Positions 41,707 to 58,505 of a stretch of DNA of 64,000 bases are shown here, in pieces. Location of the stretch: NCBI GenBank assembly GCA_903944345.1, contig CAJARJ010000021.1, positions 5,528-69,527 on the forward strand. Reading direction: 5' to 3'. Within the stretch, counting starts at the first letter, position 1. Each line of letters opens with the position of its first letter. The position numbers were made by a program, and so were the translations under genes. Origin of the DNA: Candidatus Omnitrophota bacterium. Lineage in GTDB: Bacteria; Omnitrophota; Gorgyraeia; Zapsychrales; Fredricksoniimonadaceae. The notes beneath the pieces are model-generated. The model worked only from the letters and a program-made list of their open reading frames with translations, made no database searches and had not been told where the DNA came from.

Positions 41707-41724
41707 GCGCAGGAAGGAGGGCCT

Positions 41725-43257
41725 ATGGCCGCCGGAGTAATTGATATCGGTTCCAATTCGGTCAAGCTTCTTATCGGGGAACCCGGGGACGGCGATGTCA
41801 TGGTTCTGGAGTCGCTGAGGAATATATCTCCCATCGGGCGCTCGACGTTCCTGAAAGGTTATATTGCCCAGGAACCGATTAATCTGACCATCGAGATTCT
41901 GCACAAATATCGCAAGGCCCTTCGGGAATACCAGATCGACAAGGTTTTTGTTATTGCCACCACCGCGGTGCGTGAGGCTTCCAATCGTAATATATTCGTG
42001 GATACTGTCCGTCGCAAAACCGGCTTTGAGATCGAAGTGCTCAATGTCGGTGATATTGTTTATTATATTGATGCTTATATTGCCTTCAAGCTCAAGGAGC
42101 GCTACCCGGTTCATAACCGGAACCTGTTGATTTGCGAGATGGGGGCGGGCAGCGTGGATGTTTCGTTTTTGAAAAAAGGGTTTACGGTCATGAACACCGG
42201 CCTGGCTTTGGGCTCCCTGCGCTTTCGTCAGCTGGTTAGCCGTCTTGGTGGCAGCATGGAAGAAACGACCGAAGCCCTGCAGGAATATATCGAGAACGAG
42301 TTTGCTTTTCTGCGCCAGAGATTGCCCTCTGGTGCGATCGATGATATTTTTTTGATCGATGAGAATCAGGAATATTTGCGGGCGATCTTGCCTAATCGCA
42401 AGATTGCCAGCAATTTCTTCCAGTTCGGAATCAGTGATGTCGAGCAAATTATCGCCGCACTTACGGGCAAAACCAATGAGGAGATTTCCGAGGTCTATGA
42501 TATGCCTCCGGAAGGGGCGGACGCGTTGTTGCCCTATATGATCATTCTGAAAATGTTTTTTGAGTTGACCCGTAATCCGCATGTTTATATTCTGGAAACG
42601 TCCCTGGCCGAGGCGGTTTTGGCCAATAAACTGCTGGGTCTGGAATTAAGCCGGCGTTACAGTAAAACCAATCAGTTGCTTTCAGTGGCGCACTCCATTT
42701 GCGAGAAATATCATATGGATCTGGATCACGCCAAGCATACTTCGCATGCCGCCCGGATTCTTTTTGAGGGCCTTGCGGAGCAACTGGGTCTTGAGCCCAG
42801 TCATCAGCTTTATCTGGTGCTGGCGGCCTATTTGCATGATATAGGAAAGTTTATCTCGAATCGTTCGCACCACAAGCATTCAGAGTACATCATCAACTCG
42901 TTAAATCTTTCGCGCTTGACCGAGGAAGAAGTCCGGATTATCGCTTGCGTGGCGCGTTATCATCGTCGGGGAGATCCTTCCAAGTCGCACCTTCTTTACA
43001 ATAGTTTGGCAGAAGACAAGCAGATTCTGGTACAGAAACTGTCGGCACTCCTGCGTCTGGCCAATGCGCTGGATCATTCGCATCGGCAGAAGGTTAAGGG
43101 GATGCGGGTGCTGGGGGCGGACAGTGATGATATAACGGTGCAGGTCGATACACGTTCGAATTTTTTGCTGGAAAAGAACGATTTTAATGACAAAAAAGAT
43201 CTGCTGGAAAAGATCACCGGCAGCCGTATCAAACTGGCGGTTAACGAGAATTTTTAG
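41725..43257 (+). CDS. ppx: Exopolyphosphatase / guanosine pentaphosphate phosphohydrolase family protein (Ppx/GppA)
   Basis: N-terminal actin-like ATPase motifs (IDIGSNSVKLLIGE; CEMGAGSVDVSF) and a C-terminal HD-like domain (LAAYLHDIGKFISNRSHHKHSEYII). Confidence 0.85.
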   Translation: MAAGVIDIGSNSVKLLIGEPGDGDVMVLESLRNISPIGRSTFLKGYIAQEPINLTIEILHKYRKALREYQIDKVFVIATTAVREASNRNIFVDTVRRKTGFEIEVLNVGDIVYYIDAYIAFKLKERYPVHNRNLLICEMGAGSVDVSFLKKGFTVMNTGLALGSLRFRQLVSRLGGSMEETTEALQEYIENEFAFLRQRLPSGAIDDIFLIDENQEYLRAILPNRKIASNFFQFGISDVEQIIAALTGKTNEEISEVYDMPPEGADALLPYMIILKMFFELTRNPHVYILETSLAEAVLANKLLGLELSRRYSKTNQLLSVAHSICEKYHMDLDHAKHTSHAARILFEGLAEQLGLEPSHQLYLVLAAYLHDIGKFISNRSHHKHSEYIINSLNLSRLTEEEVRIIACVARYHRRGDPSKSHLLYNSLAEDKQILVQKLSALLRLANALDHSHRQKVKGMRVLGADSDDITVQVDTRSNFLLEKNDFNDKKDLLEKITGSRIKLAVNENF

Positions 43258-43259
43258 TT

Positions 43260-45284
43260 ATGGCTGATATTGAAAATCGCGATAAGTACATTCACCGGGA
43301 TCTGAGCTGGCTGGCTTTTAACAGCCGGGTGCTGGAAGAGGCGTTGGAACCAGAGAATCCGCTGCTGGAGCAGGCTCGTTTTCTGGCGATCTGCGCCAGC
43401 AACCTCGACGAATTTCTTATGGTGCGCTATGCCGGCATCCGCAGCCTGCAGGATGCCCGGCATAATCATAAGGATGCTTATGGTTATTACCCGCAGGATA
43501 TTTTTCGTCAGCTGAGAACCGAGGTAGACGGATTTATTCGCCGGTTGTATGGAGTCTTTGAAGGCAAGATCAAGCCCGGGCTGGTAGCAGAAAGAATTTA
43601 TCTTCGTCGCTGCAGCGAGCTTAACGGTGAGCAGCAGAAATTTGTTAAAAGATTTTTTGACGGCACTCTGTACCCGGTGGTCACCCCGATGGCCATTGAT
43701 CAGGGGCATCCGTTTCCGGTTCTGATTTCGCGGACTATGGCTTTTGCTGTGCATCTGGAGCGTAAAGGCGAACCTCGTCTGGCGCTGGTGCCTGTTCCGG
43801 CTAATCTGCCCCGGCTGGTCAAATTACCCTCGCAGGCGGACACTCACGAGTTTATTTTGCTGGACGAGATTTTACGAGAACATCTGAGTATTTTTTTCCG
43901 AGGGTTTGAGTTGTCTGCTTGCGCTTTGTTCCGGATTATTCGCGACGGTGATCTGGCCGTGGACGAGGAGTTCTCTCCGAATTTGCTTAAATCCATCGAA
44001 GAAGAGGTCAAGAAACGTCCCCAGGCGCGGGTGGTGCACTTATGTGTGGAGGAAGGCTGCTCTCCCGGTTTGCTGGAAGTTTTGACCGACGCGCTCAATT
44101 TCCCGCTGGAAGAGGTGGCTTTTCTCCGCGGCGAGTTTGACCTGACTTTTCTTTTTACTCTTGCAGGCGTCGTGCCGCGTCCGGAATTGATTTATCCGGC
44201 GCTCATGCCGGCCAAACTGGCATACGATAATATTTTTAACCGCATTCGTGAGGGAGATTTTTTGCTGCATATGCCGTACCAGTCGTTTCAGCCGACGGTT
44301 GATTTGCTCAAGACGGCAGCGATTGATCCGGATGTGCTGGCGGTGAAGATGACCCTTTATCGTGCGAGTGAGGATTCCGAGATTGTTGCCGCGCTCAAAG
44401 AGGCAGCCCGGCGCAAGAAGCAGGTGACGGTCCTGGTCGAGATCAAGGCTCGCTTTGACGAGGAACGCAATATTGTTTGGGCACGGCAACTGGAAGAAGC
44501 AGGTTGTCACGTGATTTATGGTATTCCCGGGGTCAAGATTCATTCCAAGATCTGTCTTGTGGTCCGACGGGAGGAGGGGCGAACGCGTCGTTATGTGCAT
44601 TTGTCCACCGGCAATTATAATGAAAAGACGGCCCGGGTTTACACTGATCTTGGATATTTCACGGCCAATGATGATTTTGCCCGGGATATTTCGGATCTGT
44701 TTAATGTTATTACCGGGTATTCCCGTCCGGCGCGCTGGAAAAGGGTTATTTCTTCGCCGAATGATCTGCGGGAATATTTCTTCGAGTTGATTGACCGCGA
44801 GATAGCTTTTCAGAAAGAGCACCGTAACGGGTTTATTATTGCCAAGATGAACTCTCTGGAGGATACCCGTATTGTTGACAAGCTGTATGAGGCATCCAAG
44901 GCAGGGGTGCGCATTCATTTGATTGTGCGCGGTATCTGTATTCTGGTCGCCGGAGTTCCTGGTTTGAGTGACACTATTACTGTCAAGAGCGTAGTTGGAC
45001 GTTTTCTCGAACATTCCCGGATATTTCTTTTTAACAATAACTCCGACCACCGGATTTTTTTATCTTCTGCGGACTGGATGTCGAGAAACTTTGATCGTCG
45101 CATCGAACTGTTATTTGAAATTCTTCAGCCGGAACTCAAGGAGCATTTGCGTACCATTCTTGAGATGACCTGGAAAGACAATCAGAAAGCCCGGCTGCTC
45201 TTGCCGCAAAGGACGTATTCTTTTCTCAAGGCGCATGAAGACAGGCATAGCGTGCAGGGGTTTTTTCTTGGATATTATGCATGA
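43260..45284 (+). CDS. ppk: Polyphosphate kinase 1
   Basis: 674 aa; PPK1 blocks including HSKICLVVRRE, RYVHLSTGNYN and the PLD-like SADWMSRNFDRRIEL. Confidence 0.95.
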   Translation: MADIENRDKYIHRDLSWLAFNSRVLEEALEPENPLLEQARFLAICASNLDEFLMVRYAGIRSLQDARHNHKDAYGYYPQDIFRQLRTEVDGFIRRLYGVFEGKIKPGLVAERIYLRRCSELNGEQQKFVKRFFDGTLYPVVTPMAIDQGHPFPVLISRTMAFAVHLERKGEPRLALVPVPANLPRLVKLPSQADTHEFILLDEILREHLSIFFRGFELSACALFRIIRDGDLAVDEEFSPNLLKSIEEEVKKRPQARVVHLCVEEGCSPGLLEVLTDALNFPLEEVAFLRGEFDLTFLFTLAGVVPRPELIYPALMPAKLAYDNIFNRIREGDFLLHMPYQSFQPTVDLLKTAAIDPDVLAVKMTLYRASEDSEIVAALKEAARRKKQVTVLVEIKARFDEERNIVWARQLEEAGCHVIYGIPGVKIHSKICLVVRREEGRTRRYVHLSTGNYNEKTARVYTDLGYFTANDDFARDISDLFNVITGYSRPARWKRVISSPNDLREYFFELIDREIAFQKEHRNGFIIAKMNSLEDTRIVDKLYEASKAGVRIHLIVRGICILVAGVPGLSDTITVKSVVGRFLEHSRIFLFNNNSDHRIFLSSADWMSRNFDRRIELLFEILQPELKEHLRTILEMTWKDNQKARLLLPQRTYSFLKAHEDRHSVQGFFLGYYA

Positions 45285-46180
45285 CCGCTAAAGGATCCAT
45301 GGACGAAAAAGAGTTGTATTTTGTATTGGCCGGGGAGCATGTCAGGGCTGTGGAAGCCGAGGTCGCCGGGGTGCGTTCGGCCCGGGACATTGAATGTCTG
45401 CACCGGATGCGAGTAGCGTTAAGACGCCTTAAAGCCACACTTTCGGATTTTCGAGAACTGCTGCCGGCGCGTGAATATGTTTCTCTTCTGGGTAATGTGG
45501 ACAAGTTGCTCAGAGCCCTGGGACAGGCGAGGGATATTGACACCAAAATAGCTTTTCTGAATGCTCTTCTTTCCGGCGGGCAGGCAGAATCTGTTCGTGC
45601 GGGCATTCTTGAAATTATTGATGAACTGGCGGAAGATCGCAGCGAGATACAACCTAAAATACTTAAATGGATTTCGCGCTTGCGGCAGAAACAGGTCTTT
45701 CGCGCCGCGGTCAAACTCAGGCCCGCGCTTGAGAATACGGGAATGACTTTGGATGAGTGGGCCAGGAACCGTATTCTTGCCCGTTTGGAGAAGTTTTTTT
45801 CGCTCGAAGCGTATGTTCGCCGCCCGGGTTGTATCAGGGAACTGCACGGAATGCGGATTGCCGCCAAGAATCTGCGCTATACGCTGGAGAATTTCTCCCG
45901 TCTTTATGGAAAAGAAGCTCTGGATTTCGCCGGTTCCGCCATGCTCGTCCAGCGGGCGCTTGGAGAGGTTCACAGTTTTGATATCTGGCTGGGATTACTC
46001 GATATCCTGGCGGACAGTTCCGGGCGTGAGCCGTCTTTTCGCCGGGCTGTTGTTTTTCTTCGCAAGGAGTGCCAGAGTCGCCGGTCAGCAGCGTATCAAT
46101 CTTTTCTCGAGCTCTGGTCGGATCTCAAGCACAAAAAGACCTGGGCGCGGCTGGGTTTCTTCGCTTTGGATCGTTCATGA
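45281..46180 (+). CDS. CHAD domain-containing protein
   Basis: Helical repeat blocks RMRVALRRLKATL and MRIAAKNLRYTLE typical of CHAD. Translationally coupled to ppk upstream and the MPP gene downstream. Confidence 0.7.
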   Translation: MTAKGSMDEKELYFVLAGEHVRAVEAEVAGVRSARDIECLHRMRVALRRLKATLSDFRELLPAREYVSLLGNVDKLLRALGQARDIDTKIAFLNALLSGGQAESVRAGILEIIDELAEDRSEIQPKILKWISRLRQKQVFRAAVKLRPALENTGMTLDEWARNRILARLEKFFSLEAYVRRPGCIRELHGMRIAAKNLRYTLENFSRLYGKEALDFAGSAMLVQRALGEVHSFDIWLGLLDILADSSGREPSFRRAVVFLRKECQSRRSAAYQSFLELWSDLKHKKTWARLGFFALDRS

Positions 46181-47466
46181 AAATTGCCCTGGTTTCCGAT
46201 GTGCATGCCAACCTCCCGGCGCTTGAGGCGGTCATAGCGCATGCGCGTGCGCGCGGGGCGGAAGAGTTCTGGAGCCTCGGAGATATTGTCGGCTGCGGCC
46301 CTTTTCCTGATGAATGTGCCCGTTTGCTTTCAGATGCTTTTCGTTATAGTGTGCAGGGCAATCACGATGTGCGGGCGCTACCTTTCTGGCGGGATCGGCG
46401 TAAGGAGAAAGAGGCCAGAGATCCGGACAAGGCCACGCTTGTCGAATGGACCAGGACGAATTGTTCCCGCAAAACACGGGCCTATCTGCAGGGCCTTCCT
46501 CCAGTCATGACGGTTGTTGTGCGAGGGCACAAAATTCAGCTGACGCATTCTCTGCCAGAAGAGCCGTGGGGTCAGCTTTTGCAGGGCACCGAGCTTGTCC
46601 TTTCTGGGCATACCCACGGTGCCAGTGACCGGAGGATGAGGGGTATTCGTTGCATTAATCCTGGGACAGCGGGATCTGCTTTCGACGGGGACCCGCGTGC
46701 TGCTTATGCACTGCTGGAAATTGACGATCAGAGGGTGGATGTTGTTTTTGAACGGGTCGCTTACGACTGTGCGCGAGTGGAGCGGGCAATGAAAGAACAC
46801 GGTTTTCCGGTCCGCAGTATTCGGGCGTTTTCTGCTGCCCGCAGCCTTGACGGGCTGGATCGTCAGGAGATGTCTGTTCTGGTCTGCGAACTTCCGGACC
46901 GGGCCGAGCAGATCGGTCTGCGCGAGTCCTTTGACCGGGGCCATGCGCTTAAGGTTTGTCAGTTGGCCCTGAAGCTTTTCGATGGGCTTTCCGCTTACCA
47001 TGGCTTTGGTGTTCGGGAACGTCTTTTGTTGCAAAGCGCGGCGATCTTACATGATTCGGGTTTTAACCGGAACCCTCGTGCTCATCATAAAATCGCGCGG
47101 GATATAATTCTTTGTGACCGGACTTTGCCTTTAACCTGGAAAGAGCGGGTTGTTGCGGCTCTGGTAGCTCGATATCATCGACGCGCCTTGCCGGATCTTC
47201 GGCACCGTTATTACGGGGTTATCGGGCCTGCCCGCAGGCGCGTGGTTGATGTTCTGGGAGGGATTCTGCGGATGGCTGACGGAATGGATCGCCTGCATCT
47301 TGGAGAAGTTCACGATATTGCTCTGGATGTTTTTGCGCGTCGACTTGAAGTGACCCTGCTGAGCGAGATGCCGGTACCTGAATCAGAGCGCGGTGCCGGG
47401 CAGAAATCTGATCTATTGTCTCGTGCCTTGAACCGGATAATCCGTGTCAGGCACAAATTCCTTTAG
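46177..47466 (+). CDS. Metallophosphoesterase (calcineurin-like) fused to a Ppx/GppA-C-terminal-like HD domain
   Basis: Start at the internal ATG at 46177, which overlaps the CHAD stop (ATGA). MPP motifs MKIALVSDVHAN, SLGDIVG, GNHD and SGHTHG; C-terminal ~170 aa (HALKVCQLALKLFD...AAILHDSGFNRNPRAHHKIARDII) resembles the helical HD-type domain of Ppx/GppA. Confidence 0.65.
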   Translation: MKIALVSDVHANLPALEAVIAHARARGAEEFWSLGDIVGCGPFPDECARLLSDAFRYSVQGNHDVRALPFWRDRRKEKEARDPDKATLVEWTRTNCSRKTRAYLQGLPPVMTVVVRGHKIQLTHSLPEEPWGQLLQGTELVLSGHTHGASDRRMRGIRCINPGTAGSAFDGDPRAAYALLEIDDQRVDVVFERVAYDCARVERAMKEHGFPVRSIRAFSAARSLDGLDRQEMSVLVCELPDRAEQIGLRESFDRGHALKVCQLALKLFDGLSAYHGFGVRERLLLQSAAILHDSGFNRNPRAHHKIARDIILCDRTLPLTWKERVVAALVARYHRRALPDLRHRYYGVIGPARRRVVDVLGGILRMADGMDRLHLGEVHDIALDVFARRLEVTLLSEMPVPESERGAGQKSDLLSRALNRIIRVRHKFL

Positions 47467-47502
47467 CCGCAGTGTCCGGGATTCCTGCAACAACAGAAAC
47501 TT

Positions 47503-48825
47503 CTAGAGAACAAAAACAATTGTTTTGCGGTCAGAGTTTTTGTTGTACGCCGCCAGGGCCCGGCGCAGGGGCAGAATGCAGAAAGAAATTTTTTTCTTTC
47601 TAAGCAGGCGCAGCCCTTTGGGAGAAAACGCGGTACGAACACCCGGGGCACAGGCAATATAAAGACTGTCCGGGCCTTTTTTGCAGAGCCAGGCCAGATT
47701 TTTGTCATTAATAATCTGCCGCAGGCATTCTTGCGGCTGTTTGATTTTTCCGTCAGCCCGGACGAGGGTTGTACTGGCAAAAGGTTTGCCGTCAATCCGG
47801 ATAGAGCCCTCTGTTGAAATTTTTATCTGGGGATAGCTTAGAGTAGCCAGACGAGTATGTCCGGCATTCTGCAGGGCGATAGCGACCGCACCCAGCATGA
47901 CAGCGTCGTCTCCCAGGCGTGCCGAGATGACGCGGGGAGGGGGCAGTTTTTTGAAGAAAGGGTCGGCTTTAAGAGCTTTTTCAACGCGCGCAAGAATAAA
48001 GTCTCCGCAGGCCTCGATCAGGCCTCCGCCAAACAGAAATATATCAGGATTAAAAAGATGGTTGAGAGATACACAGCTGTAAGCCAGAGACTGTGCGGCG
48101 GCGTCCATGATCCTGGTGACCAAAGGATCTTTTAACTGCAGGGCGCGGGCCAAGGCGCTGCTTTTGATGCGTTCAAGATTGCGGTCGGCCAGTTCAGTAA
48201 TGAGGGAGTGTTCGCCTTTTTTGATGGCCGCACGTATATCGCGTTCTATGGCCCAGCGGCCAGCCAGAGCTTCCAGGCAGCCGCGATTGCCGCAGGAACA
48301 TTCCGGACCCAGCGGGTCTACGGTCATATGCCCGAGTTCTGCAGCGGCGCCCTGGCTGCCGGTCATCAGTTTTCCGTTAATGACAATACCGCCACCAATT
48401 CCTGTTCCAGGGAAGATGCCGACGATTGAGGAAGCTTTGCGTCCGGCACCCAGCCATTGTTCACCCAGGACACCGAGGTTCACGTCGTTGCCGATCGAAA
48501 CCCGGAGGTGCAGGCGTTTTTCAAGGATATTTTTAAGATCGGATTTTTCCAGATTAAGATTGGGTGTGGCCAGTACTCGTCCGGCATTATCGACAATACC
48601 GGGTATAGCCAGACCGATGCCGGCGAGTTCCGAAGTTTTTTGGCCAGATTCCAGTAAAAGGGTTTTGACGATTTTGTCTATTAGGGCACAAATTTCTTTG
48701 GCTCCGGCTTTGGGCGGTGTCGCCAGTTTGTGCTGGCAGAGAATAACTCCTGCGGGAGTCACCAGCCCGCCAAGAATTTTTGTGCCGCCGACATCGATAC
48801 CTATGAAGTTTTTTTCATTTAGCAT
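47503..48825 (-). CDS. ROK-family glucokinase with a ~120-aa C-terminal extension
   Basis: FIGIDVGGTKI ATP-binding start; ROK zinc motif CSCGNRGCLEA; GIGGGIVING block. Residues ~325-440 fall outside the normal ROK length. Confidence 0.8.
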   Translation of the reverse strand: MLNEKNFIGIDVGGTKILGGLVTPAGVILCQHKLATPPKAGAKEICALIDKIVKTLLLESGQKTSELAGIGLAIPGIVDNAGRVLATPNLNLEKSDLKNILEKRLHLRVSIGNDVNLGVLGEQWLGAGRKASSIVGIFPGTGIGGGIVINGKLMTGSQGAAAELGHMTVDPLGPECSCGNRGCLEALAGRWAIERDIRAAIKKGEHSLITELADRNLERIKSSALARALQLKDPLVTRIMDAAAQSLAYSCVSLNHLFNPDIFLFGGGLIEACGDFILARVEKALKADPFFKKLPPPRVISARLGDDAVMLGAVAIALQNAGHTRLATLSYPQIKISTEGSIRIDGKPFASTTLVRADGKIKQPQECLRQIINDKNLAWLCKKGPDSLYIACAPGVRTAFSPKGLRLLRKKKISFCILPLRRALAAYNKNSDRKTIVFVL

Positions 48826-49293: not shown

Positions 49294-49322
49294 TTGACAT
49301 ACAACGCAATAGGTGTTATTTT
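49294..49322 (+). promoter_or_regulatory. Candidate sigma70-like promoter in the 570-nt AT-rich divergent intergenic region
   Basis: TTGACA (49294-49299), 17-nt spacer, TATTTT (49317-49322). The -10 is weak. Confidence 0.2.
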
Positions 49323-49394: not shown

Positions 49395-52300
49395 ATGGCT
49401 AAGCGTTTTCTTTTATTCCGCAGGGTCACGGCAGTTGTGGTTCTAGGATCTTTTTTACTTTCCAGTCTTTTCCCTTCCGATCTGGTGGCTCAGCAGCTTG
49501 CGGCAGGCCTGCCGGGGGTATCAGATCTCCCCGCTCCTGGCGCGATGGTTGCGCTCAGTGGTCCGGGGCAGGATGTTCTGTTAAACGGGTTACATGTCGA
49601 TTCTTTTGACCCTTTCAAATTCCAGTTTATTGCCGACCGTCGACCCGCTTCTATGGGCGATCGTTCTTATGAAGCGGAGATAAACAAAAGTATCCGATAT
49701 TTTCTTGCCACTCTGGTTTTTCCGGAAACGTCTATTTGGGTAAACTTGTCTCCTTATGAAAAAGACAGGATGCTGGATCCTGGTGTTAGCGAAACTGTGC
49801 TTGGGGAAGGGCTTGTTCGTCAGGATTATTTGTTGAAACAGATGGTGTCCAGCCTGTTGCACCCCGACATGGACCTTGGTCGGAGTTTCTGGAGCCAGGT
49901 GTATTCGCAAATGGGGGAGAAATACGGAACAACGGAAGTTCCAGTGGAAACTTTTAATAAAGTCTGGATCGTGGCGGACTATGCGACGGTATATGAAGAC
50001 CAGGGCACAGCCTATATCAAGAATTCCAGGCTGAAGGTTCTGACTGATGTTGATTACCAGGCATACAAAGCTGGATCTACGGAGTTGCACCAGCAAGATG
50101 CGTCTTTGCCCAGTCTGGTGGCAACGGATGCAATTCGGGAGGTGATTATCCCGATTTTGGAAAAGGAAGTTAATACCGGGGCGAATTTTGCTAATTTACG
50201 TCAAATTTTCCATGGGTTTATTCTGGCGTCCTGGTACAAGAAATCTTTGAAGAATTCATTGCTCGGTCAGCATTATGCCGATCATGGATTAACCGGGGGT
50301 GTAGAGGCTGCCGATGCCCGGATTGCAGAGAAAGTTTATGCCCGTTATCTGGAGGCTTTTCGTACTGGCGTGTTTAACCTGATCCGGGAAGACCGGGTGG
50401 CAGATGAAATCGTTCCGAGAAAGTATTTCTCGGGTGGAGTCGGGTTCGTTGATGCGGCTCGGTATGAAAGAATGCCGGAGCAATTTGTACCGGCAGCGCA
50501 GGCTGTTATTGATACGGAGGTTTTGCCTATAAACGCAGAAAAGGTTCCTTCTGATGAAATTGTAGGGACTGATTCCGACATTACCCGGGAGGACGCGGCC
50601 CAGATAACGGCTGTTGCAAATACAGGTTCAGTCCAGGAGTTGTCTTCTTTTAATTTCCTGAAGGTTTCCGAAGCTTTTGGGGCTAAAGCATCTGCAGTCG
50701 ATTCAAAGGTTATGCAGGAGCTAGTTAGCGATCAAGACCGGGAAGTTCTTCCGGGTATTGGTCAGGTGTCAGTCATGGTTGTTGCAGATGAGAATAAAGG
50801 AGACTTGCCGCTGGGATTTGCCCTTGATTCGCAAACAAAGACAATTTATGTGTCTGCGGATTACCTGTCCAGGGTTCGCTCAGGTGGCGATTTGTCAGAC
50901 AATAAATTTGTTTTGAGAAAAGCGTATGCAGTGTTGCACGGTGGGTCAAGAGAGGGAATCGGTTCTATTTATGCTGATGTCCGTTCCGGGCTTGCTCACG
51001 AGCAAGAGATCGTTCAAACCACGTTTGATGAGTTCTCCCGGGACATGGTGGTTAGTGATGATCCCGCCCGTACCGAGGAGTATTACCGGGCCTTGGCCGG
51101 ACAGGTATCCGGTTTGGAGAAAGAGAAGCTGGATGTTGTTTTGCCGTCCATGGAAATGGTCAGGGGTATGGGGAGGTTGCGAACGGATTTTAAGCGCATG
51201 CTTTATGATATTACAGAAAACAGGCTGGATGGCATTACCCGGGCGACGACAGAACAATTTGAAATTGCCCCGGAAGAGCTTGGACAATACTCTTCGGTGG
51301 CATTTATTGCTACAAAGTTGGCGCCGCCAACGGTCGTTCACAAGCTTTTGCAGACGGCATTGTCAGCTTATTTTGGCACGGACATTTCAGTTATTGATGT
51401 GACGGCTCTTGATTCGCGAAAGCCATCTGTTCAATGGACGCATGCGACGAGAAAACGCCTGGCAGCCCTTACCCTGGAACCGTTAAAAGCATTTGTCAAG
51501 ATGATCAGAGTGCAGGAACCTGAACTGCAAGGTTTCAATGGGGAGCCGATGTCGTTCAAGTTGCTGGCGCGTTTGCGCACGGCGGGACAACAAACGGGCA
51601 AGATGATCAAAAAATATGTCTATCAGGCCGGCTCGGATCACGCCGGAGTTGCTGGCATAAAGGGTGTCCGGGATCTTATTGGGATGGTGACTTATGAGAG
51701 TGCGGCCCAATTTCGGGACGGGATTGCGCCGATTGAGGAAAATCCGGCAGCTTATCAGGATTTGATTGCATCTATCCTGGTGCTCGCAGGACCTTCGATA
51801 AATATAGATAGTGAGACGGGGTTGTTGAAGGAAGGGCAGGCGCTGCCGCCACTTGTTCAGTACCTGGCAGCACATCCTGACAGCATGGCGGCCAGGATTG
51901 ATAAGGAACGGAATCGTCTTCTGGAGCAAGTTGGCGTTACATCATATTATCTGGAGCCTGGTGAGCTTTTAGATATCTTACGTCAGTTGGCGGCAGATTC
52001 CGGACTGGCCAGACAGGTGCTCAGCGAGATTGCCTCAGAGTTGCAGGTGGTTTATACAGACGCCAAGGAAGCAATAATTCAGATATCGGCGATGATAAAC
52101 ACGAAGAATGAAAAGCGTGTGCGTACAGCTTTGGAGAATGCCTTGACGCACCAGTTGGATAACAAGGAATTACTGCAGTCTATCGGTGATTTCGATATTG
52201 ATCAATTGCTGGACGAGAGGACAAGAGTGATTGCGCGCAATATTGTTGCCGGGACAGTGGATGTTTCCGGCTTGGATTATCGCAGATTGAACCGGAACCT

Positions 52301-53663
52301 ATTACGGGTCTATTTTGGGCAGGCGGGAAGAAATCTGACATATAGCTATATTGGGCGTCCAAAGATGTTCTGGACGGAAGGCGAGATCAGGAATCATGCC
52401 AGAAAAATAGGTAATGAGTCCGGTATGAACGCGACAGTACAACAGCATAAAAGAAGACGGGATATTGTTGGCCTTATTCTGGAAACGCCCGCAGAGAAGC
52501 TGTCCGCAGCTTTGGCGGGAAAAAGAGAGCAAGGCAATATTATTGATCTTCCTTACATCGATACGGTGGGGCTTCTGTATATGCTGCAACGCAGCAATCC
52601 GGACACACAGATTGTTTTTGCTCACACGGTTCGTCCGGATGCTATGCGAGTCGATATTTTACGGGATTATATTATTAATGAAAGACTGCTTAGTGTTGCC
52701 AATGTTCCTCTGGCCGAGGTGCCTGTTGCCGCAACCTGGACCCGGCATGCCATGTTAAGGCGACTGTTGGAGCATACCGGAATAGTTGAGGCTGAGCAGC
52801 TGGCCGGTTTCAGATCAGGATCCGAGTGGGATCCGGAGAATATCCGGGGTGTCTGGGAGCGTGTAGGAAACGGTTTCGTGCGATTAAAAGATGCCTATCT
52901 GACGGCCACGAAAGAAGAAGTGTCGTCGTATTTCGATGGGGATGTTGAGAGTGTCTGGCCGGTTATTGCTGAAGCCCGGTTGCGAGGGAAAACAACAATT
53001 GATCTGGGATTGCTGGCCTCAGCGGGAGATATTCATACAGCTACGGCTGTTTTGTCGGAACCCGAAACGATGAGGACAATATTGGCCGGGGCTGAACAGG
53101 GCCTGCCTGCGTTCTTTCCTTCTTTGTGGGATTCCCGGTTGAAAGAAATAGCTGATGTGATAAGCCGGAAAGTTTCTGAAACATACTCTATCGGGCTGGA
53201 AGTAATTCTAACGCCTCCTGTTGTAAGTGGCGAGAAGTTTGATGCGGGAAAAACCAGGCTGGTTTTTTATGATGATGGTAAACCGGTTGGACGGATGAGT
53301 TTTGATGTGAGGTTTTCTTTTAGTCGGGATGGACAAATAGAGACCGTGCCTGAAGTAAGTACTTTTGAGTTAGATGAGTCCGCTCGAGCAAAGATCCGGG
53401 ATGTGGATGCGTTTAAACAGAGAATTGCCAGTGTTTTTGCGGGAAAAGAATGGGCCGATGCCAGTATGGCGGCCCCGGGTGGTGTGGATCTTGGAAATCG
53501 TGATTTCCAAATGAATATCGAGGCCGGCAGACAGTCGCCTGAGATTACGGATACTGCGATGGAAGCTGTTCTTGTCCGCGATGATTTCGCCGGGTTGAGT
53601 TTCCGGGTTCTGGGTATTTCAACTCTTGCAGAGACCCCTTTGTCTATGGCTATAGGTAGATAA
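49395..53663 (+). CDS. Giant signal-peptide protein (1422 aa), function unknown; paralog of the downstream gene
   Basis: Signal peptide VTAVVVLGSFLLSSLFPSDLVAQQ. The N-terminal ~350 aa are colinear with the downstream paralog (VNLSP..., K/RVWIV, ILA(S/D)WYKK, GVFN(L/F)(I/V)RE(D/E), PRKYFSGG). Confidence 0.7.
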   Translation: MAKRFLLFRRVTAVVVLGSFLLSSLFPSDLVAQQLAAGLPGVSDLPAPGAMVALSGPGQDVLLNGLHVDSFDPFKFQFIADRRPASMGDRSYEAEINKSIRYFLATLVFPETSIWVNLSPYEKDRMLDPGVSETVLGEGLVRQDYLLKQMVSSLLHPDMDLGRSFWSQVYSQMGEKYGTTEVPVETFNKVWIVADYATVYEDQGTAYIKNSRLKVLTDVDYQAYKAGSTELHQQDASLPSLVATDAIREVIIPILEKEVNTGANFANLRQIFHGFILASWYKKSLKNSLLGQHYADHGLTGGVEAADARIAEKVYARYLEAFRTGVFNLIREDRVADEIVPRKYFSGGVGFVDAARYERMPEQFVPAAQAVIDTEVLPINAEKVPSDEIVGTDSDITREDAAQITAVANTGSVQELSSFNFLKVSEAFGAKASAVDSKVMQELVSDQDREVLPGIGQVSVMVVADENKGDLPLGFALDSQTKTIYVSADYLSRVRSGGDLSDNKFVLRKAYAVLHGGSREGIGSIYADVRSGLAHEQEIVQTTFDEFSRDMVVSDDPARTEEYYRALAGQVSGLEKEKLDVVLPSMEMVRGMGRLRTDFKRMLYDITENRLDGITRATTEQFEIAPEELGQYSSVAFIATKLAPPTVVHKLLQTALSAYFGTDISVIDVTALDSRKPSVQWTHATRKRLAALTLEPLKAFVKMIRVQEPELQGFNGEPMSFKLLARLRTAGQQTGKMIKKYVYQAGSDHAGVAGIKGVRDLIGMVTYESAAQFRDGIAPIEENPAAYQDLIASILVLAGPSINIDSETGLLKEGQALPPLVQYLAAHPDSMAARIDKERNRLLEQVGVTSYYLEPGELLDILRQLAADSGLARQVLSEIASELQVVYTDAKEAIIQISAMINTKNEKRVRTALENALTHQLDNKELLQSIGDFDIDQLLDERTRVIARNIVAGTVDVSGLDYRRLNRNLLRVYFGQAGRNLTYSYIGRPKMFWTEGEIRNHARKIGNESGMNATVQQHKRRRDIVGLILETPAEKLSAALAGKREQGNIIDLPYIDTVGLLYMLQRSNPDTQIVFAHTVRPDAMRVDILRDYIINERLLSVANVPLAEVPVAATWTRHAMLRRLLEHTGIVEAEQLAGFRSGSEWDPENIRGVWERVGNGFVRLKDAYLTATKEEVSSYFDGDVESVWPVIAEARLRGKTTIDLGLLASAGDIHTATAVLSEPETMRTILAGAEQGLPAFFPSLWDSRLKEIADVISRKVSETYSIGLEVILTPPVVSGEKFDAGKTRLVFYDDGKPVGRMSFDVRFSFSRDGQIETVPEVSTFELDESARAKIRDVDAFKQRIASVFAGKEWADASMAAPGGVDLGNRDFQMNIEAGRQSPEITDTAMEAVLVRDDFAGLSFRVLGISTLAETPLSMAIGR

Positions 53664-53738
53664 TCCTAAAGCAGGACCCCATGGGGGGCTTTGTTTCGTG
53701 GGGCAGAGATCCGGGCTAACACACAGTCGGGAATATGT

Positions 53739-56700
53739 ATGGGGCGTAGACTAGCGGCATCGTTGCTGGTATTAGTTCTTCTTTTCGAGAACGGGTTGAC
53801 CCAGGCTCAGGGTTTGTATTGGCTTCCCGCTCCGAACAGAATGATCCTTCCAGGAGCTCCTTTTGCCCCCTCTCTTTTTCAGGGCCTGCGGCTAGAGGCT
53901 TCCGATCCGCTTAATTTTCAGTTTTTGCTGGAGGATGGAGAATCTTCAGCGGATCATTCCGAGATTGAGCGTATGCTGCGGTATTTTATGGCTGCTTTGG
54001 CTCTGCCGCAGAAAGATGTCTGGGTGAATCTCTCTCCCGGAGAGAGTCGACGTGTGGCTCCTCAGGCACTGGCTCTTACCGAAATTGGCCGTGAGTTGCT
54101 GGGGCAGGATTATGTGCTCAAGCAGCTGGCAGCATCATTGCTCTTTCCCGAAAGTGAGGGGGGTCGGGCTTTCTGGGAGAATGTTTACCGGCAAGCCTGG
54201 ATCCGGTTTGGCACGGTGGATATACCACTAGAAACTCAAAGCCGTGTTTGGATCGTCCCAGGCGAGATTTCACTTTATCAACAAAAAGGTGTTGTGCTTG
54301 TTGCTTCAGCGCGTTTACAGGTTTTAGCGGAGGATGATTACCTGCGCTTTAAAGATGGAAAGCCAGAAGGTTCGGGGCAGTCGGATATTCGACGGCTTGT
54401 TAGCGATGTTTTTCGCCAAATGATTTTGCCCGAGTTAGAGCGGGAGGTGAATTCAGGCCCTGCTTTCTCTCGTTTACGGCAGGTTTATTATGCCTTGATT
54501 CTGGCGGACTGGTACAAGAAAAATTTCCAGATGATTTCGGGCTTATCTTCTTATGTAGATCAGGGGCGATTGGCGGGGTTGGCCACGGAGAGTCCGCATT
54601 TGCGTGAGCAGGTCTGGGGTCAGTATATGCAGGCGTATCAGATCGGTGTTTTTAATTTTGTGCGTGAAGAGTCCTCTCCGGATGGCGGGCAGATTCCTCG
54701 TAAATATTTTTCGGGAGGGATTTCTCTGGATGTTGCGGCTAATGCCGAAGTAACAGATTCCAGAGAGCTTCCCCGTTACGCGCGCCCACTTCGGTTGGTT
54801 AATGTGCAGGCTGTTGACCGGGCCCAGGTCCCGGAAGAGTATTTGTCAGCCGATCCGCGCAGTGCCGGCAACAAGGGGAGAAATCTACAGGCTTTGGATT
54901 CGCTTCTGCCGGATATCGTACCGCCTTTTCTGGTGATTTCCGGTCATCTTTACAGTGCGGCCACAGGAGATCCGCAAATGGTTGCGCTGGTGTGTGCGAA
55001 AGTTCTTGAAAGGCTGGAAAGAGTGTTGCGCTCTGGAGCCACTCTGGCGGTTCGACCGGCGGGTTATATTAATATGCCCGGGATTTTGCCTACTATAAAG
55101 CAGGTCAGGACCCATCAGGAGCTTGTGCAGGCAGTATGGGACATATACAAGGCATGGGAAATGCCGGAGGTTCGCGCCTATCTTTCTACCGAGACCGCCC
55201 GGCTTGAGGCCGCACTTGCGATAGACAAGAAATTCCCGGTTGACATTGGGCCGGCGATTGTAGTTCAGCAGGAAGTTTTCTCGGATCGGGGCGCGTATAG
55301 CGGTAGCGGTGTTTTTGTATCCAGAAATATCAAGAGCGGGGATTTTCATGTTTCGGGTTCATTAGGGATCAATGTAGTTCCGGAGGATATTCGTAACGGC
55401 AGCGTGCGGTCCCTCTTGAATCTGGGCCCTTCTGTGGATGAGCAATTCCCTTCATTTTCTCAAGATGGGGGAGCAGGTTTTTATGCGACACTTGAGAGTG
55501 CGGCCCGTAAATTGGAGAAGGCTTATCATTTTCCGGTGGAGGTGGAGTTTGTTGTGGAGCGTGGTAAGCTTTGGGTTCTTCAGGTTAATCATCAGGACAT
55601 CCCTGCGACAGTTGGAAGTCAGATATTGACCCGAATGGTTTCCGAGGGCATTCTAAGCCGTGCGGGTACGGTGCGGGAACGTGTGCGCATGATTCGCCAG
55701 CGTGTTGGCAAGATAAGATCAGGGGTCAATCTTGAGCCTTTGCTGGAAAATGTCAGAGGACTTTCTGTTGGTGCCGTCGATGGCGTGTTGTCTTTCAGCG
55801 TGCCGGAAGCCAAACAGATGCGCGCCCTCGGACAAAAGGTTATTCTGCTTTCTCTTGAGCCTGATCTACCCGGTGTGACTCAAGCCTTGATTGACGCGCA
55901 GATAGATGGTTTTGTGACGATGTATGGCGATTATCATATGCATAATGCCCGGTTGGCCCGTAATCGGCTTATTCCCGGACTTTCTCTTGTGGGGACATCG
56001 GCACGCATTGTTGCCGGAGTGTCGGCCCCCCGATTGCAGATCGGATCCCGGACGTATTCAGCCGGGGATCGGCTGGTAGTCAATGCAGAAGATTTTAATC
56101 GTGATGGAGAGGTTTTTCATTCCGGAGGGCTTTTTGTCAACGACCAGGAAGAGAGTGTTATTGACTATCATGAGGAAGCGGTAAATTATCTGGATTTTGA
56201 TGAACAGCAGGTGCGACAACAGGTGCGTCAACGTTTTGTGGGTCAAGACTATCAGGTTCTGACTGCTTTACACGCATTGCTGAAAGCCTATCTTTTTCTT
56301 AAGGTTGATCCGCAGGATTTTACGGTGGATCAGCTTGAGATCGCCACCAATGAACTGCATCAGATACTTGATGAAGCTTACAGAGAGGGAGAGCAGGTGG
56401 CGGAATCAGCCGATTATAATGGTGCGCGCGAGGCGGTCTTTGTGCCGATTGTGGAGGGGTTTGGAGATTCCTTTCCTTTTCCGGAGATGCGTACGCTCGG
56501 GGATCTTGAAAAAGGTTGGGAGCTTATGGCGTATTTTGTTGAGCGATATCGCGCGATGCCGCCGGCACGGATCGATTATTTTAATTATTCATCCGAGCGC
56601 CCCAATCTGGTTGCTGAAAGCTTATCTATTCCACTAAGTTTTTCTGTTTTGTTCAACGACCCTGAGCATATTAACTGGACGTATGAGAATGCGCAATTGT

Positions 56701-57818
56701 GGGCGCTTGTGCGCCATTTCAAGCCGGAGATTTCTTATAACAAGGACACTCTGGCCGGAAACTTTTTGTCAGCGCCCGCTATTGAGGGTCTGCGTTTTGT
56801 GGCGGATCCGCTTAATTCTTCGCAGATTCGGGTGAGCGGCCGAGCCGATGTTCTTTCGGGATCTCCCAGCCGGACATTCTCCCTGATGGCCAGAGACCCT
56901 TTGGCCGATGCCTGGGATCGTAAGGTTTTATTCTTTGCGCATCGGGAGGTTCTTGTTGATGTAGCCGATTTCAGGGATTATATACGACACAGGTCTGAAG
57001 AAGCGCTGAGCCGGTATCCTCCTTTGCGCAGAGGGAAGTCGCCGTCTTTTGTTTCAGAAGAATCTGTTGCGGAAATGTTGCAAGAGTTTTTTCTTCCCCG
57101 AACGTATCAAACGGCGGCACTAAGATCCCTTAAAGGAGGGGATTTTGTTGCAGAAGATGAGCCGGGTGAAACTAAAGACGACGGATACGATATATTAGAC
57201 GGGGATTTGTTGTGGCGACTTTCCCAGCAGACGCTGGGCTCATATTTTGTCGGGGAAGAATTGCGGCCCGGGATTGTTCGCCCCCCGGATCCGCACAGGA
57301 CCAGGGAGTCAAGGTTATTGCTTAATCTTTTACGTGAAGTTTTTCCCTCGGGTCGCCTGATTCATCGGGCAGGCCGTCGCAGGGAACAGGGGTTTATGAA
57401 TCATAATCTGGCAACCGTTGAGACAGTCCATTATTATTCGTGGATCATTCTTGGCGAAGAGGTGGTGGGCGAGTTAGCCAGAGAGTTGTCCGGATTGGCT
57501 TTGCGGTATGACCTTTCCCGAGCGGTTAGCGTAGAGGAGCAGGCCCGTGTACTGGATCTTGAAGGACTGTTGTTCCTTTTGTATCTCGACAAGAACAAAC
57601 AGCTCGAAGATCTGCAGGCTCTGGATCCGGTATCTCCGGTAGGAGGGATTGATCTGAGTCTTTCCTGGGGGACGGGGAGAGACTCTTTGTCTGCAGTTGA
57701 GTCTGCGCAAGATGCCCTCGTTCCTGATTTGGACAACGGGTTACTGATTAAAATGATGAAGGTGTGTTTTCTGCCGGATGTGGCCGCTTTTATTCCCGAT
57801 TTTTCTTTGAAGAAATAA
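53739..57818 (+). CDS. Giant signal-peptide protein (1360 aa from the internal start) with an internal PPDK-N/PEP-utilising ATP-grasp-like domain
   Basis: Start at the ATG at 53739 (MGRRLAASLLVLVLLF signal peptide). Residues ~395-640 carry GNKGRNLQALDSLLPDIVPPFLVISGHLY, AVRPAGYINMPG and FPVEVEFVVERGKLWVLQVN, which resemble the GGKxxNLxEL..VPpGFvIt and DIE(F/W)..E.GKL(W/Y).LQ blocks of the pyruvate,phosphate dikinase N-terminal nucleotide-binding domain. Confidence 0.65.
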   Translation: MGRRLAASLLVLVLLFENGLTQAQGLYWLPAPNRMILPGAPFAPSLFQGLRLEASDPLNFQFLLEDGESSADHSEIERMLRYFMAALALPQKDVWVNLSPGESRRVAPQALALTEIGRELLGQDYVLKQLAASLLFPESEGGRAFWENVYRQAWIRFGTVDIPLETQSRVWIVPGEISLYQQKGVVLVASARLQVLAEDDYLRFKDGKPEGSGQSDIRRLVSDVFRQMILPELEREVNSGPAFSRLRQVYYALILADWYKKNFQMISGLSSYVDQGRLAGLATESPHLREQVWGQYMQAYQIGVFNFVREESSPDGGQIPRKYFSGGISLDVAANAEVTDSRELPRYARPLRLVNVQAVDRAQVPEEYLSADPRSAGNKGRNLQALDSLLPDIVPPFLVISGHLYSAATGDPQMVALVCAKVLERLERVLRSGATLAVRPAGYINMPGILPTIKQVRTHQELVQAVWDIYKAWEMPEVRAYLSTETARLEAALAIDKKFPVDIGPAIVVQQEVFSDRGAYSGSGVFVSRNIKSGDFHVSGSLGINVVPEDIRNGSVRSLLNLGPSVDEQFPSFSQDGGAGFYATLESAARKLEKAYHFPVEVEFVVERGKLWVLQVNHQDIPATVGSQILTRMVSEGILSRAGTVRERVRMIRQRVGKIRSGVNLEPLLENVRGLSVGAVDGVLSFSVPEAKQMRALGQKVILLSLEPDLPGVTQALIDAQIDGFVTMYGDYHMHNARLARNRLIPGLSLVGTSARIVAGVSAPRLQIGSRTYSAGDRLVVNAEDFNRDGEVFHSGGLFVNDQEESVIDYHEEAVNYLDFDEQQVRQQVRQRFVGQDYQVLTALHALLKAYLFLKVDPQDFTVDQLEIATNELHQILDEAYREGEQVAESADYNGAREAVFVPIVEGFGDSFPFPEMRTLGDLEKGWELMAYFVERYRAMPPARIDYFNYSSERPNLVAESLSIPLSFSVLFNDPEHINWTYENAQLWALVRHFKPEISYNKDTLAGNFLSAPAIEGLRFVADPLNSSQIRVSGRADVLSGSPSRTFSLMARDPLADAWDRKVLFFAHREVLVDVADFRDYIRHRSEEALSRYPPLRRGKSPSFVSEESVAEMLQEFFLPRTYQTAALRSLKGGDFVAEDEPGETKDDGYDILDGDLLWRLSQQTLGSYFVGEELRPGIVRPPDPHRTRESRLLLNLLREVFPSGRLIHRAGRRREQGFMNHNLATVETVHYYSWIILGEEVVGELARELSGLALRYDLSRAVSVEEQARVLDLEGLLFLLYLDKNKQLEDLQALDPVSPVGGIDLSLSWGTGRDSLSAVESAQDALVPDLDNGLLIKMMKVCFLPDVAAFIPDFSLKK

Positions 57819-57968
57819 GATCCCCACTTTGTGTAGACCCTTCTTTCGGGCGGGTTTCTATGCGAAAATGCTGTGGATTTACCGGGAATTATTTGAACAG
57901 ATATGCTATTTTATCCCTGCGCACGCTTTGTTCCGGATTTTTTGTTAGCGATACGGGGTAAATGGTTT

Positions 57969-58505
57969 ATGCTTCTGAATCGATGGGGTATTCTTTTGGT
58001 TGTGTTGGCGTTGTCGGGGGCTGCCTCCGGTTGTGATCGTATTTACGGCTTATTGCATAAACCGGGCGGAGAAGAACGCAGCGTCCTGGGGGAAGTTGTT
58101 TTTAATGAGTATAATCCCAAAGTCGAAGAGTTGCAGCAGATTCTGAAAACTCTGGGTTACAATATTGGTCGAGCTGACGGCAAGTTTGGCGCGGCGACGC
58201 GTGAGGCTGTGGCAAAATTTCAGGCCGAGGAAAAACTTGAGGTGACCCGGTTTGTTGACAAACTCACCTGGGAGCGGTTGCGCAGTTATGCGGACGGGCC
58301 ATTTATCAGTCAGGGACAGGTTAAGGCCCTTAATGTTCAGCGGGCACTTCTCGCCGCGGGCTATGATCCTGGCAGGATAGACGGGCAGATGGGGACGCGC
58401 ACGCGCGAGGCAGTCAAGTCCTTTCAGCGTGACCGCGGATTGTCTCCCGACGGACAGGTCGGACTAAGGACGATCAAGCTTCTTGCAGAGTACCATCGCG
58501 AATGA
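57969..58505 (+). CDS. Lipoprotein with two peptidoglycan-binding (PG_binding_1-like) domains
   Basis: Start at the internal M: MLLNRWGILLVVLALSGAASGC is an SPase II lipobox. Two repeats LGYNIGRADGKFGAATREAVAKFQ and AGYDPGRIDGQMGTRTREAVKSFQRDRGLSPDGQVG. Confidence 0.65.
   Translation: MLLNRWGILLVVLALSGAASGCDRIYGLLHKPGGEERSVLGEVVFNEYNPKVEELQQILKTLGYNIGRADGKFGAATREAVAKFQAEEKLEVTRFVDKLTWERLRSYADGPFISQGQVKALNVQRALLAAGYDPGRIDGQMGTRTREAVKSFQRDRGLSPDGQVGLRTIKLLAEYHRE

Follow-up and report, generated by a model that had tools for sequence, protein, structure and literature searches.

We analysed a 64,000-nucleotide stretch of DNA (the window; contig CAJARJ010000021.1 of assembly GCA_903944345.1, positions 5,528 to 69,527 of the forward strand) from a Candidatus Omnitrophota bacterium, and focus here on two large genes, A and B, that lie in tandem on its plus strand. 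Omnitrophota are widespread, uncultured and ultra-small bacteria that are thought to live on other cells. Gene A (49395-53663) encodes 1,422 amino acids according to the list of open reading frames (ORFs) and its translation, and gene B (53739-57818) encodes 1,359 amino acids counted from an ATG at 53739. An earlier reading made without database searches (the sequence-only reading) had described the pair as tandem paralogs with signal-peptide-like N termini; both ORFs were confirmed, and the leader features were identified by inspection. A and B are members of a large, undescribed Omnitrophota cassette family, in which a signal peptide is followed by an N-module of about 320 amino acids, a variable cargo and a C-module of about 60 amino acids. 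We refer to the two modules as the bracket.

The N termini of A and B pass from basic residues through a hydrophobic core of 12-16 residues to small residues at positions -3 and -1. The signal peptide of A covers residues 1-32 (49395-49490, plus strand), with MAKRFLLFRR as n-region, VTAVVVLGSFLLSSLF as h-region and PSDLVA as c-region ahead of a predicted cleavage before QQ. That of B covers residues 1-23 (53739-53807, plus strand), with MGRR, LAASLLVLVLLF and ENGLTQA ahead of QG. Both fit the criteria for Sec export and signal peptidase I (SPase I), namely a basic n-region, an h-region of 7-16 residues and small residues at -3 and -1, and neither has a lipobox. The ORF list starts gene B at TTG 53691 (1,375 amino acids); ATG 53739 (MGRRLAAS...) is the plausible start, which has GGGAA 6 nucleotides upstream and agrees with the starts of all orthologs. 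A gene call for B by the Joint Genome Institute (P0001; locus L003, 1081-5058) begins at an internal methionine, which yields 1,325 amino acids and loses the signal peptide, and calls of this kind would mask the export signal in automated surveys of the family.

The same leader layout was present in five of five full-length orthologs of B, and a leader composed of K/R, a hydrophobic stretch and A-x-A was found in all 107 N-module ORFs from metagenome loci that had enough upstream sequence. Across the family the leader core is short (12-16 residues) and followed by proline or glycine, and essentially all members have an A-x-A-like site. Among 120 family matches, we saw almost no transmembrane (TM)-like segments beyond the leader and no terminal TM segment. 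Twin-arginine (Tat) export was rejected as a family rule: RR is present in A and B, but KK, RK or KR takes its place in most members. From these features we infer that the leaders of A and B would be cleaved and the proteins exported by Sec. The proteins might instead stay inside, with the N-terminal helix acting as an uncleaved tether or a part of the fold, the enzymes held at the inner face of the membrane and the N-module serving as a membrane-proximal scaffold. Such an arrangement would suit cargo that, as described below, is overwhelmingly of cytoplasmic type and looks catalytically intact, and would suit the lack of linkage to secretion systems. However, charges ahead of a short core, proline or glycine and an A-x-A-like site make up the Sec/SPase I pattern and predict an N-in, C-out orientation, and no such N-terminal segment was found in the bona fide cytoplasmic enzymes of the window (GlgP, GlgB, GH57, Ppx, PPK1 and CHAD). 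We regard retention in the cytoplasm as very unlikely.

The N-module spans residues 41-358 of A (49515-50468, plus strand; WVNLSP at 115-120 and PRKYFSGG at 341-348) and residues 24-337 of B (53808-54749, plus strand), with scores of 380.7 bits (E = 7.5e-115) and 360.6 bits, respectively, against the family hidden Markov model (HMM). A colinear N-terminal domain had been proposed from the sequence alone, and BLASTP bore this out with a single colinear match of A 41-358 to B 25-337 at 39% identity (E = 3e-67); nothing significant was found outside this match. Searching the window by tblastn returned the copies in A and B only. All of the family-invariant motifs of the N-module are kept in both proteins. 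In the numbering of the mature protein, the invariant polar residues comprise N74 and S76 (WVNLSP) and D101, K105 and Q106 (DYxLKQ), and further invariant residues are N215 (EVN), R224 and Q225 (LRQ); these polar residues might line a pocket for a ligand or make up a Ser/Lys dyad. No relative of the N-module was found in Pfam, NCBIfam, PADLOC or PHROGs when A and B were searched, and a profile search of the PDB gave no match. Domain-level structure prediction, which the sequence-only reading had suggested, produced an AlphaFold2 model of the B N-module (73 sequences) with a pLDDT of 81.6 and a pTM of 0.81, in which long helices accompany a pair of extended beta-hairpins at mature residues 23-42 and 147-174. 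Foldseek found no match to this model in the PDB (best E 0.17, TM ≤ 0.13) or in BFVD. Alpha-pore-forming toxins (NheA, ClyA and SmhA) were dropped as candidate fold relatives, as they were seen only in Foldseek noise.

The C-module has the consensus GGIDLnp..m.L.....G.gi.F..DPA.l.qlqna.Gf.PVIinI.Pl.dL..FLGl. and lies at residues 1354-1415 of A (53454-53639, plus strand; ...APGGVDLGNRDFQMNIEAG...DFAGLSFRVLGISTL...) and residues 1300-1359 of B (57636-57815, plus strand; ...VGGIDLSLSW...NGLLIKMMKVCFLPDVAAF...), with in-sample HMM scores of 23.7 and 15.9 bits. We also built a leave-out HMM without A, B and the relatives of both. This model matched A at the expected position with a marginal 12.6-14 bits (E = 0.006) and matched P0122, a relative of A, with an E value of 8.5e-4. 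B scored below its threshold; the GGIDL of B lies 58 residues before the end, as in the family, and its orthologs P0004, P0002 and P0006 have C-terminal matches to the leave-out HMM at E values of 1e-6 to 7e-5. We count the C-module as present but weak or diverged in A and B. The view that the two proteins diverge after the N-terminal domain thus holds for their cargo and fails for their ends, which both carry the family-typical module. GGIDL lies about 50-75 residues from the C terminus in around 100 of 122 sequences (120 matches plus A and B). Searches with A and B gave no match of the C-module in Pfam, NCBIfam, PADLOC or PHROGs, and dockerin, the C-terminal domain (CTD) of the type IX secretion system (T9SS), PEP-CTERM and the double-glycine leader were discarded as identities for GGIDL, being unsupported by models or motif context.

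Constant ends and variable cargo across the family

To count the family we used the B N-module as query in an exhaustive phmmer search of 1.84 billion cluster representatives (clusters at 50% identity). This survey of the distribution, also suggested by the sequence-only reading, returned 7,636 cluster representatives, nearly all of them from Omnitrophota, when E was limited to 1e-3; 5,954 of these remained at a limit of 1e-30. The source bore a name in 16 cases, 15 of which were Candidatus Omnitrophica or Omnitrophota, and two loci with GTDB assignments were also from Omnitrophota; by rough extrapolation, a genome probably carries tens of copies. In all 150 matches listed, the N-module match was single and started at or before residue 74, and among these matches members ranged in length from 341 to 3731 amino acids. 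WVNLSP lies near residue 100 and (R/K)KYFSGG near residue 335 in 120 family matches. Only three matches were found among 2.9 million viral contigs. Literature searches did not find the bracket architecture, or the GGIDL motif (full text), described, and the bracket is not mentioned in the Omnitrophota papers PMC10066038, 10.1101/2023.11.21.568195 and 10.64898/2026.06.07.730766.

Hundreds of proteins retrieved with B as query match only its first 24% or so, and the rest of each carries differing Pfam domains. Metabolic cargo includes transketolase, fructose-bisphosphate aldolase (FBA) with GAPDH and triosephosphate isomerase (TPI), PEPCK, glutamate dehydrogenase (GDH), EPSP synthase and class V aminotransferase. 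Among glycan and nucleotide enzymes we found UDP-glucose pyrophosphorylase (UDPGP) with nucleoside-diphosphate kinase (NDK), glycogen synthase and family 1 glycosyltransferase (GT1), and glucan phosphorylase recurs. Regulatory and nucleic-acid cargo comprises superfamily 2 (SF2) helicase, XRE-type helix-turn-helix (HTH), receiver domains, HATPase_c and protein kinases, and methyltransferases, GNAT, HAD and metallophosphatase were also seen. The SCTT motif of GAPDH and the YEPVWAIG motif of TPI are present in the cargo of P0056. Eight short family members gave no Pfam match at E ≤ 0.01.

A metagenome scan yielded at least 558 confirmed loci, of which 80 were analysed with the HMMs built here, together with loci fetched earlier. 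These contained 111 ORFs with an N-module. Where the stop codon lay inside the locus, the C-module was found within 41 residues of it in 72 of 80 N-module ORFs, and most of the other eight were split by frameshifts. Conversely, a C-module without an N-module was seen only where an ORF was cut by the edge of the locus or by a frameshift. We looked for minimal members with the two modules only; the short matches (340-470 amino acids) had no C-module and appear truncated. Of 88 sources, made up of 87 loci and the window, 19 held tandem arrays of two or three members; such arrays also occur beside orthologs of B. When flanking ORFs of 120 amino acids or longer were compared, a screen that would miss small immunity genes, none of the neighbouring gene families recurred at over 8 of the roughly 80 loci. 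Genes for tyrosine recombinases, phage-integrase-like by sequence reading, adjoin members in 7 of about 80 loci (for example, L042 7873-8931), and may be connected with loci reported as hypervariable in genomes of Omnitrophota.

For pairwise comparison, the N-module, cargo and C-module were separated in each of 167 complete members. When N-modules were at least 60% identical, the cargo was without similarity in 2,053 of 2,077 pairs, a count that chimeric metagenome assembly at near-identical N-modules could inflate. Some pairs combined N-modules of 93-100% identity with unrelated cargo. In P0083/P0088, P0220/P0225 and P0064/P0080, N-modules 93-100% identical and C-modules 61-100% identical flank wholly unrelated cargo; such pairs reflect either recent cassette exchange or concerted evolution, or assembly chimeras at repeated modules. 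The identities of N- and C-modules co-vary (r = 0.60), with a mean C-module identity of 65% where N-modules are at least 75% identical and of about 30% where they are below 45%. Because the two ends co-vary while the cargo between them is unrelated, they appear to evolve as a matched bracket around an exchanged middle, a pattern characteristic of handling modules whose evolution is tied to a shared partner or to one another.

If the partner is the other module, the bracket could be a pair of assembly tags, with the C-module docking on the N-module in cis or in trans, much as cohesin binds dockerin, to build non-covalent enzyme arrays. This would be a split version of the giant multi-enzyme polypeptides of the phylum and is compatible with export to either destination considered below. 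The modules always co-occur and their identities co-vary, tandem arrays are common, and the Pfam repertoire equals that of the giant 'multi-enzyme clusters'. In an AlphaFold2 model of the full-length short member P0064, the C-module is predicted as a helix and a 12-residue strand that would have to pair with a strand from elsewhere. Yet that model is of low confidence (mean pLDDT 53.6; 60-89 in the N-module and 55-67 in the C-module), no dockerin or cohesin signature was detected, and co-variation is equally expected from one genome-specific machinery or from shared ancestry. We consider head-to-tail docking improbable, though better placed than retention in the cytoplasm.

The cargo and surroundings of genes A and B

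The cargo of A (residues ~366-1353; 50490-53453, plus strand) is an orphan. It has no recognisable domain and no match in Pfam, NCBIfam, PADLOC, PHROGs or the PDB, and homolog searches returned only A itself and one protein of 59% identity, P0122.

The cargo of B begins with a nucleotide-binding part of ATP-grasp or PPDK_N type (residues ~377-625; 54867-55613, plus strand). PF01326 (PPDK_N) matched with 36.2 bits (gathering score 27; E = 5.4e-9) and is the sole Pfam match in B, in agreement with the sequence-only reading, which had placed such a domain at 54.87-55.62 kb on the strength of two peptides that we located at residues 377-383 (54867-54887) and 599-617 (55533-55589). The outcome that this reading had named as refuting it, no PF01326 match above threshold, therefore did not occur. 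The same reading had seen no phosphohistidine domain, and this part of it did not stand. A swivel domain of this kind occupies residues ~655-790 (55701-56108, plus strand), with the codon of His735 at 55941-55943. Positions 199-495 of the NCBIfam model TIGR01828 align with B 459-783, and phmmer against the PDB aligned B ~498-782 with residues 228-499 of pyruvate, phosphate dikinase (PPDK) from C. symbiosum (1DIK; E = 5e-17) and also matched 2FM4, the isolated central phosphohistidine domain. PF00391 gave no reported match for B at E ≤ 1.

In these alignments YGDYHMH735NARLAR of B corresponds to RGGMTSH455AAVVAR of PPDK, so that the catalytic histidine is retained, and PVEVEF...LQVN corresponds to QDMEF...LQTR, so that Glu323 and Gln335 are kept and Arg337 is replaced by Asn. 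GNKG of B provides the equivalent of Lys22 and VRPAG..MPG that of Arg92. We take Lys22, Arg92, Glu323, Gln335 and Arg337 of the C. symbiosum enzyme to be nucleotide and Mg ligands. B has five full-length orthologs (P0002-P0006), which are 36-40% identical to it and annotated as Omnitrophota where named. Lys379 (GNKG), Arg439 (VRP), Glu601, Glu603, Gln615 and His735 are invariant in B and all five, and YGDYHMH(N/L)AR is conserved in the six aligned sequences. Because catalytic residues are invariant across the orthogroup, the dikinase module appears to be under purifying selection as an enzyme. Taken together, these alignments indicate that the cargo of B is a histidine-phosphotransfer unit of the PPDK or PEP-synthase type, an ATP-grasp domain followed by a swivel domain like the first two-thirds of PPDK.

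The absence of a PEP-binding TIM barrel, noted in the sequence-only reading, was upheld: PF02896 (PEP/pyruvate TIM barrel) has no match in B at E ≤ 1. Its place is taken by a tail domain of about 490 amino acids (residues ~800-1290; 56136-57608, plus strand) that is conserved across the six sequences of the orthogroup and rich in invariant His, Arg, Trp, Asn and Glu. It has no relative in Pfam or the PDB, profile search included, and none was found in NCBIfam, PADLOC or PHROGs when B was searched. B scored 77 bits against the TIGR01828 equivalog, below the cut-off of 843.45. Because the barrel is absent and the equivalog score fails, B is not itself a PPDK. PADLOC gave no match for A or B, and the sole PHROGs match was to a generic 'kinase', in the dikinase region of B.

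The N-modules of the B orthogroup are 47-49% identical, as compared with 36-40% for whole proteins. The orthogroup appears to be an old lineage that has kept the same cargo in its bracket from genome to genome, unlike the usual pattern of the family. Orthologs of B end arrays of other family members, and their remaining neighbours differ. In L007 (1173-14110), and in L006, the ortholog is the last gene in an array of three to four members; the 1566-amino-acid gene just upstream of it in L007 also has a faint PPDK_N match, and the L006 counterpart is split by a frameshift.

Had A and B been a one-off pair of paralogs, one copy could have picked up an ATP-grasp domain on its own, lacking the remaining parts of a dikinase, as PF01326 being the only Pfam match in B might suggest. 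This account is already refuted and retains next to no probability: the swivel phosphohistidine domain is present and conserved, full-length orthologs of B occur in at least five other Omnitrophota genomes, and the N-module is common to some 7,600 clusters. The combination of a signal peptide with an ATP-grasp domain that had been thought unexpected is real, but it is not peculiar to this pair, since cargo of cytoplasmic type is the rule in the family.

Turning to the surroundings, the ROK gene upstream of A is on the opposite strand and divergent from it, and A therefore appears to start its own transcription unit. A promoter-like site (49294-49322, plus strand; TTGACA, 17 nucleotides, TATTTT, with TG) lies 70 nucleotides upstream; it is the top sigma-70-like match of the region (10/12), by consensus match only. 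GAAAGG lies 9 nucleotides 5' of the ATG of A, and the 75 bases between A and B contain a small GC hairpin and a T-run. A glycogen and polyphosphate island (32912-48825) sits directly 5' of the two genes and encodes GlgP, GlgB (CBM48 and alpha-amylase), GH57 with DUF3536, Ppx/GppA, PPK1 and a CHAD protein, as well as a signal-peptide-bearing DUF4140/DUF4139 protein, a metallophosphatase with Ppx domain III and the ROK kinase (minus strand). Behind B, a gene for a 200-amino-acid protein (57903-58505) with a lipobox-like leader (...LSGAASGC, then D) and two PG_binding_1 domains is followed by nqrA-E. Farther upstream, 14122-27344 holds seven radical-SAM ORFs, all on the plus strand (two with SPASM, one weak and below the Pfam cut-off), with genes for an asparagine-synthase-like protein and a DegT/DnrJ aminotransferase between them on the same strand; this region resembles a cluster for the modification of sugars or peptides. 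Across 1-64000, each 2-kb bin shows a positive GC skew (0.09-0.26) and nearly all genes are on the plus strand; the window is probably on the leading strand of one replichore.

Proposed export of the cassettes and its possible destinations

We propose that A, B and their relatives are exported cargo cassettes whose N- and C-modules act as shared export, anchoring or delivery modules, that they are effector-like at the interface with a host or prey cell, and that B is a histidine-phosphotransfer enzyme. We give this reading as a whole a probability of roughly 0.45. The Sec/SPase I leader would take everything behind it out of the cytoplasm, and because there is no second TM segment the cargo would not be returned inside. 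The N- and C-modules would serve all members alike in exporting, anchoring or delivering the cargo, and would be recognised either by a single shared machinery or mutually. The destination would be a host or prey cell, either its inside or the zone of contact with it. We favour it because the cargo needs ATP, DNA or other nucleic acids, and central metabolites, and it fits the host-dependent lifestyle proposed for the phylum. It also fits the report of predator RNA inside prey cells of the sole cultured Omnitrophota member (PMC13153191), as well as the giant signal-peptide 'multi-enzyme' proteins with the same domain repertoire. B would use ATP to autophosphorylate His735, and the tail domain would bind the acceptor to which the phosphoryl group is then transferred. 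The upstream glycogen and polyphosphate genes and the recurring glucan-enzyme cargo prompt a weak guess that this acceptor is an alpha-glucan.

Several points weigh against the proposal. The support for export consists of signal-peptide features read by inspection. The N-module fold has no relative, so its role is read from architecture, and neither module showed a recognised motif for secretion, anchoring or sorting; for T9SS CTD, autotransporter barrel, PEP-CTERM, LPXTG, GlyGly-CTERM and dockerin, A and B gave no Pfam or NCBIfam match at E ≤ 1. The C-module is weak in A and below the leave-out threshold in B, no secretion-system gene is linked to the family loci, and the chimeric assemblies mentioned above bear on the count of like brackets around unlike cargo. 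As for the chemistry, the equivalent of Arg337 is Asn in all six sequences of the B orthogroup; this arginine is presumably important for the phosphate step in C. symbiosum PPDK, and B may have an altered or impaired chemistry. Moreover, the genes for glycogen and polyphosphate metabolism are not a conserved neighbourhood of the B orthologs.

The main rival shares the signal-peptide and architecture evidence, and holds that the cassettes are envelope-resident enzymes for the cell's own use, exported by Sec and kept in the periplasm or at the surface, with the N-module as an anchor to wall, membrane or surface layer and the C-module as a retention or sorting tag. They would serve extracytoplasmic metabolism, for example of alpha-glucans or polyphosphate, in keeping with the glycogen and polyphosphate island that immediately precedes A and B and with glucan phosphorylase, glycogen synthase and GT1 recurring as cargo. 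A peptidoglycan-binding protein follows B, LysM and YkuD occur near the L007 ortholog, and the literature on giant proteins interprets similar proteins as secreted or membrane-anchored. On the other hand, helicase, HTH, receiver, NDK and ATP-dependent kinase cargo has no obvious periplasmic substrate, lipobox, LPXTG, PEP-CTERM, SLH and OmpA-like anchor motifs were not detected, and the neighbourhood is not conserved. We hold this alternative to be a serious possibility, if a less probable one than export towards a host or prey cell.

A bolder form of the host or prey proposal is that the N-module and GGIDL are address labels of an unrecognised, phylum-wide export or delivery route that sends hundreds of kinds of normally cytoplasmic enzymes and regulators, the histidine dikinase of B among them, into or onto host or prey cells. 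We offer this tentatively, as less likely than not but with a substantial chance; if true, the family would form an effector superfamily not seen before, with its own novel pair of trafficking or assembly modules, rewiring host or prey metabolism. The bracket family puts an export signal on enzymes that are normally confined to the cytoplasm, keeping two modules near constant while the cargo is swapped freely. Should the modules be trafficking or assembly tags, they would open a direct way into how the phylum interacts with its hosts, by providing a searchable signature of an exported proteome, a domain pair with which to look for binding partners and a link to the giant multi-enzyme proteins.

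Relation to known systems

The idea of constant trafficking parts with a variable payload is already known. Judged by the searches described above, the bracket itself matches no known sorting, secretion, toxin-trafficking, dockerin, defence or phage family. In architecture, polymorphic toxins (Rhs/CdiA), MARTX, T9SS cargo with its CTD and the anthrax factors LF and EF, which have an N-terminal translocon-binding domain in common, all combine constant trafficking parts with a variable payload, as the bracket family does. The family resembles such modular secreted proteins in its near-identical brackets around unrelated cargo, its tandem arrays and a Sec signal like that of T9SS and type V (T5SS) cargo, but it has no sequence or fold similarity to their trafficking domains. 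Both of its ends are constant, which is MARTX-like only, and its payloads are housekeeping-type enzymes and regulators rather than toxins. Whereas polymorphic toxins have a variable C-terminal tip and an immunity gene, the bracket family has a conserved C terminus and an internal variable part, and no immunity-like or other partner gene recurred among its flanking ORFs of at least 120 amino acids.

Chlamydiae, which are PVC-related and host-dependent, export everyday carbohydrate enzymes that act outside the bacterial cytoplasm, and Gehre and colleagues reportedly described in 2016 how chlamydial glycogen-metabolism enzymes are secreted into the inclusion. The bracket family likewise has recurrent glycogen-enzyme cargo. 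Chlamydiae place type III signals on normal enzymes, whereas the bracket family would use a Sec signal with N- and C-modules, and its host compartment is a proposed one.

For B, the closest comparison is PPDK of C. symbiosum (1DIK/1KBL; TIGR01828). B ~377-790 has the same order of ATP-grasp and swivel domains, the equivalents of Lys22, Arg92, Glu323, Gln335 and His455 are conserved, and the likely shared chemistry is ATP-driven phosphorylation of a histidine followed by transfer to an acceptor. B differs in having a novel domain of about 490 amino acids instead of the TIM barrel, Asn in place of Arg337, and a signal peptide and N-module in front. The wider group of PEP-utilising histidine dikinases includes PEP synthase, glucan water dikinase and rifampin phosphotransferase; B presumably has neither the carbohydrate-binding module (CBM) of glucan water dikinase nor the rifampin-binding insert. 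B brings to this group a phosphotransfer unit that resembles PPDK but has a novel domain in third place.

Within the phylum, the giant proteins of Omnitrophota have been described as signal-peptide- or TM-bearing 'multi-enzyme metabolic clusters', PPDK_N included (10.1101/2023.11.21.568195; 10.64898/2026.06.07.730766). These giants (West-Roberts et al. 2023 and Nielsen & Lui 2026, preprints) share with the A/B family the phylum, an N-terminal signal peptide and the Pfam domains PPDK_N, HATPase_c, methyltransferase, GNAT, HAD, starch synthase, GT1, receiver and ROK. The giants are at least 10,000 amino acids long, with many tiled Pfam domains, often many TM helices, and C39 or S8 peptidase domains, whereas A and B have about 1,400 amino acids, no further TM segment and, as is usual in their family, one cargo unit.

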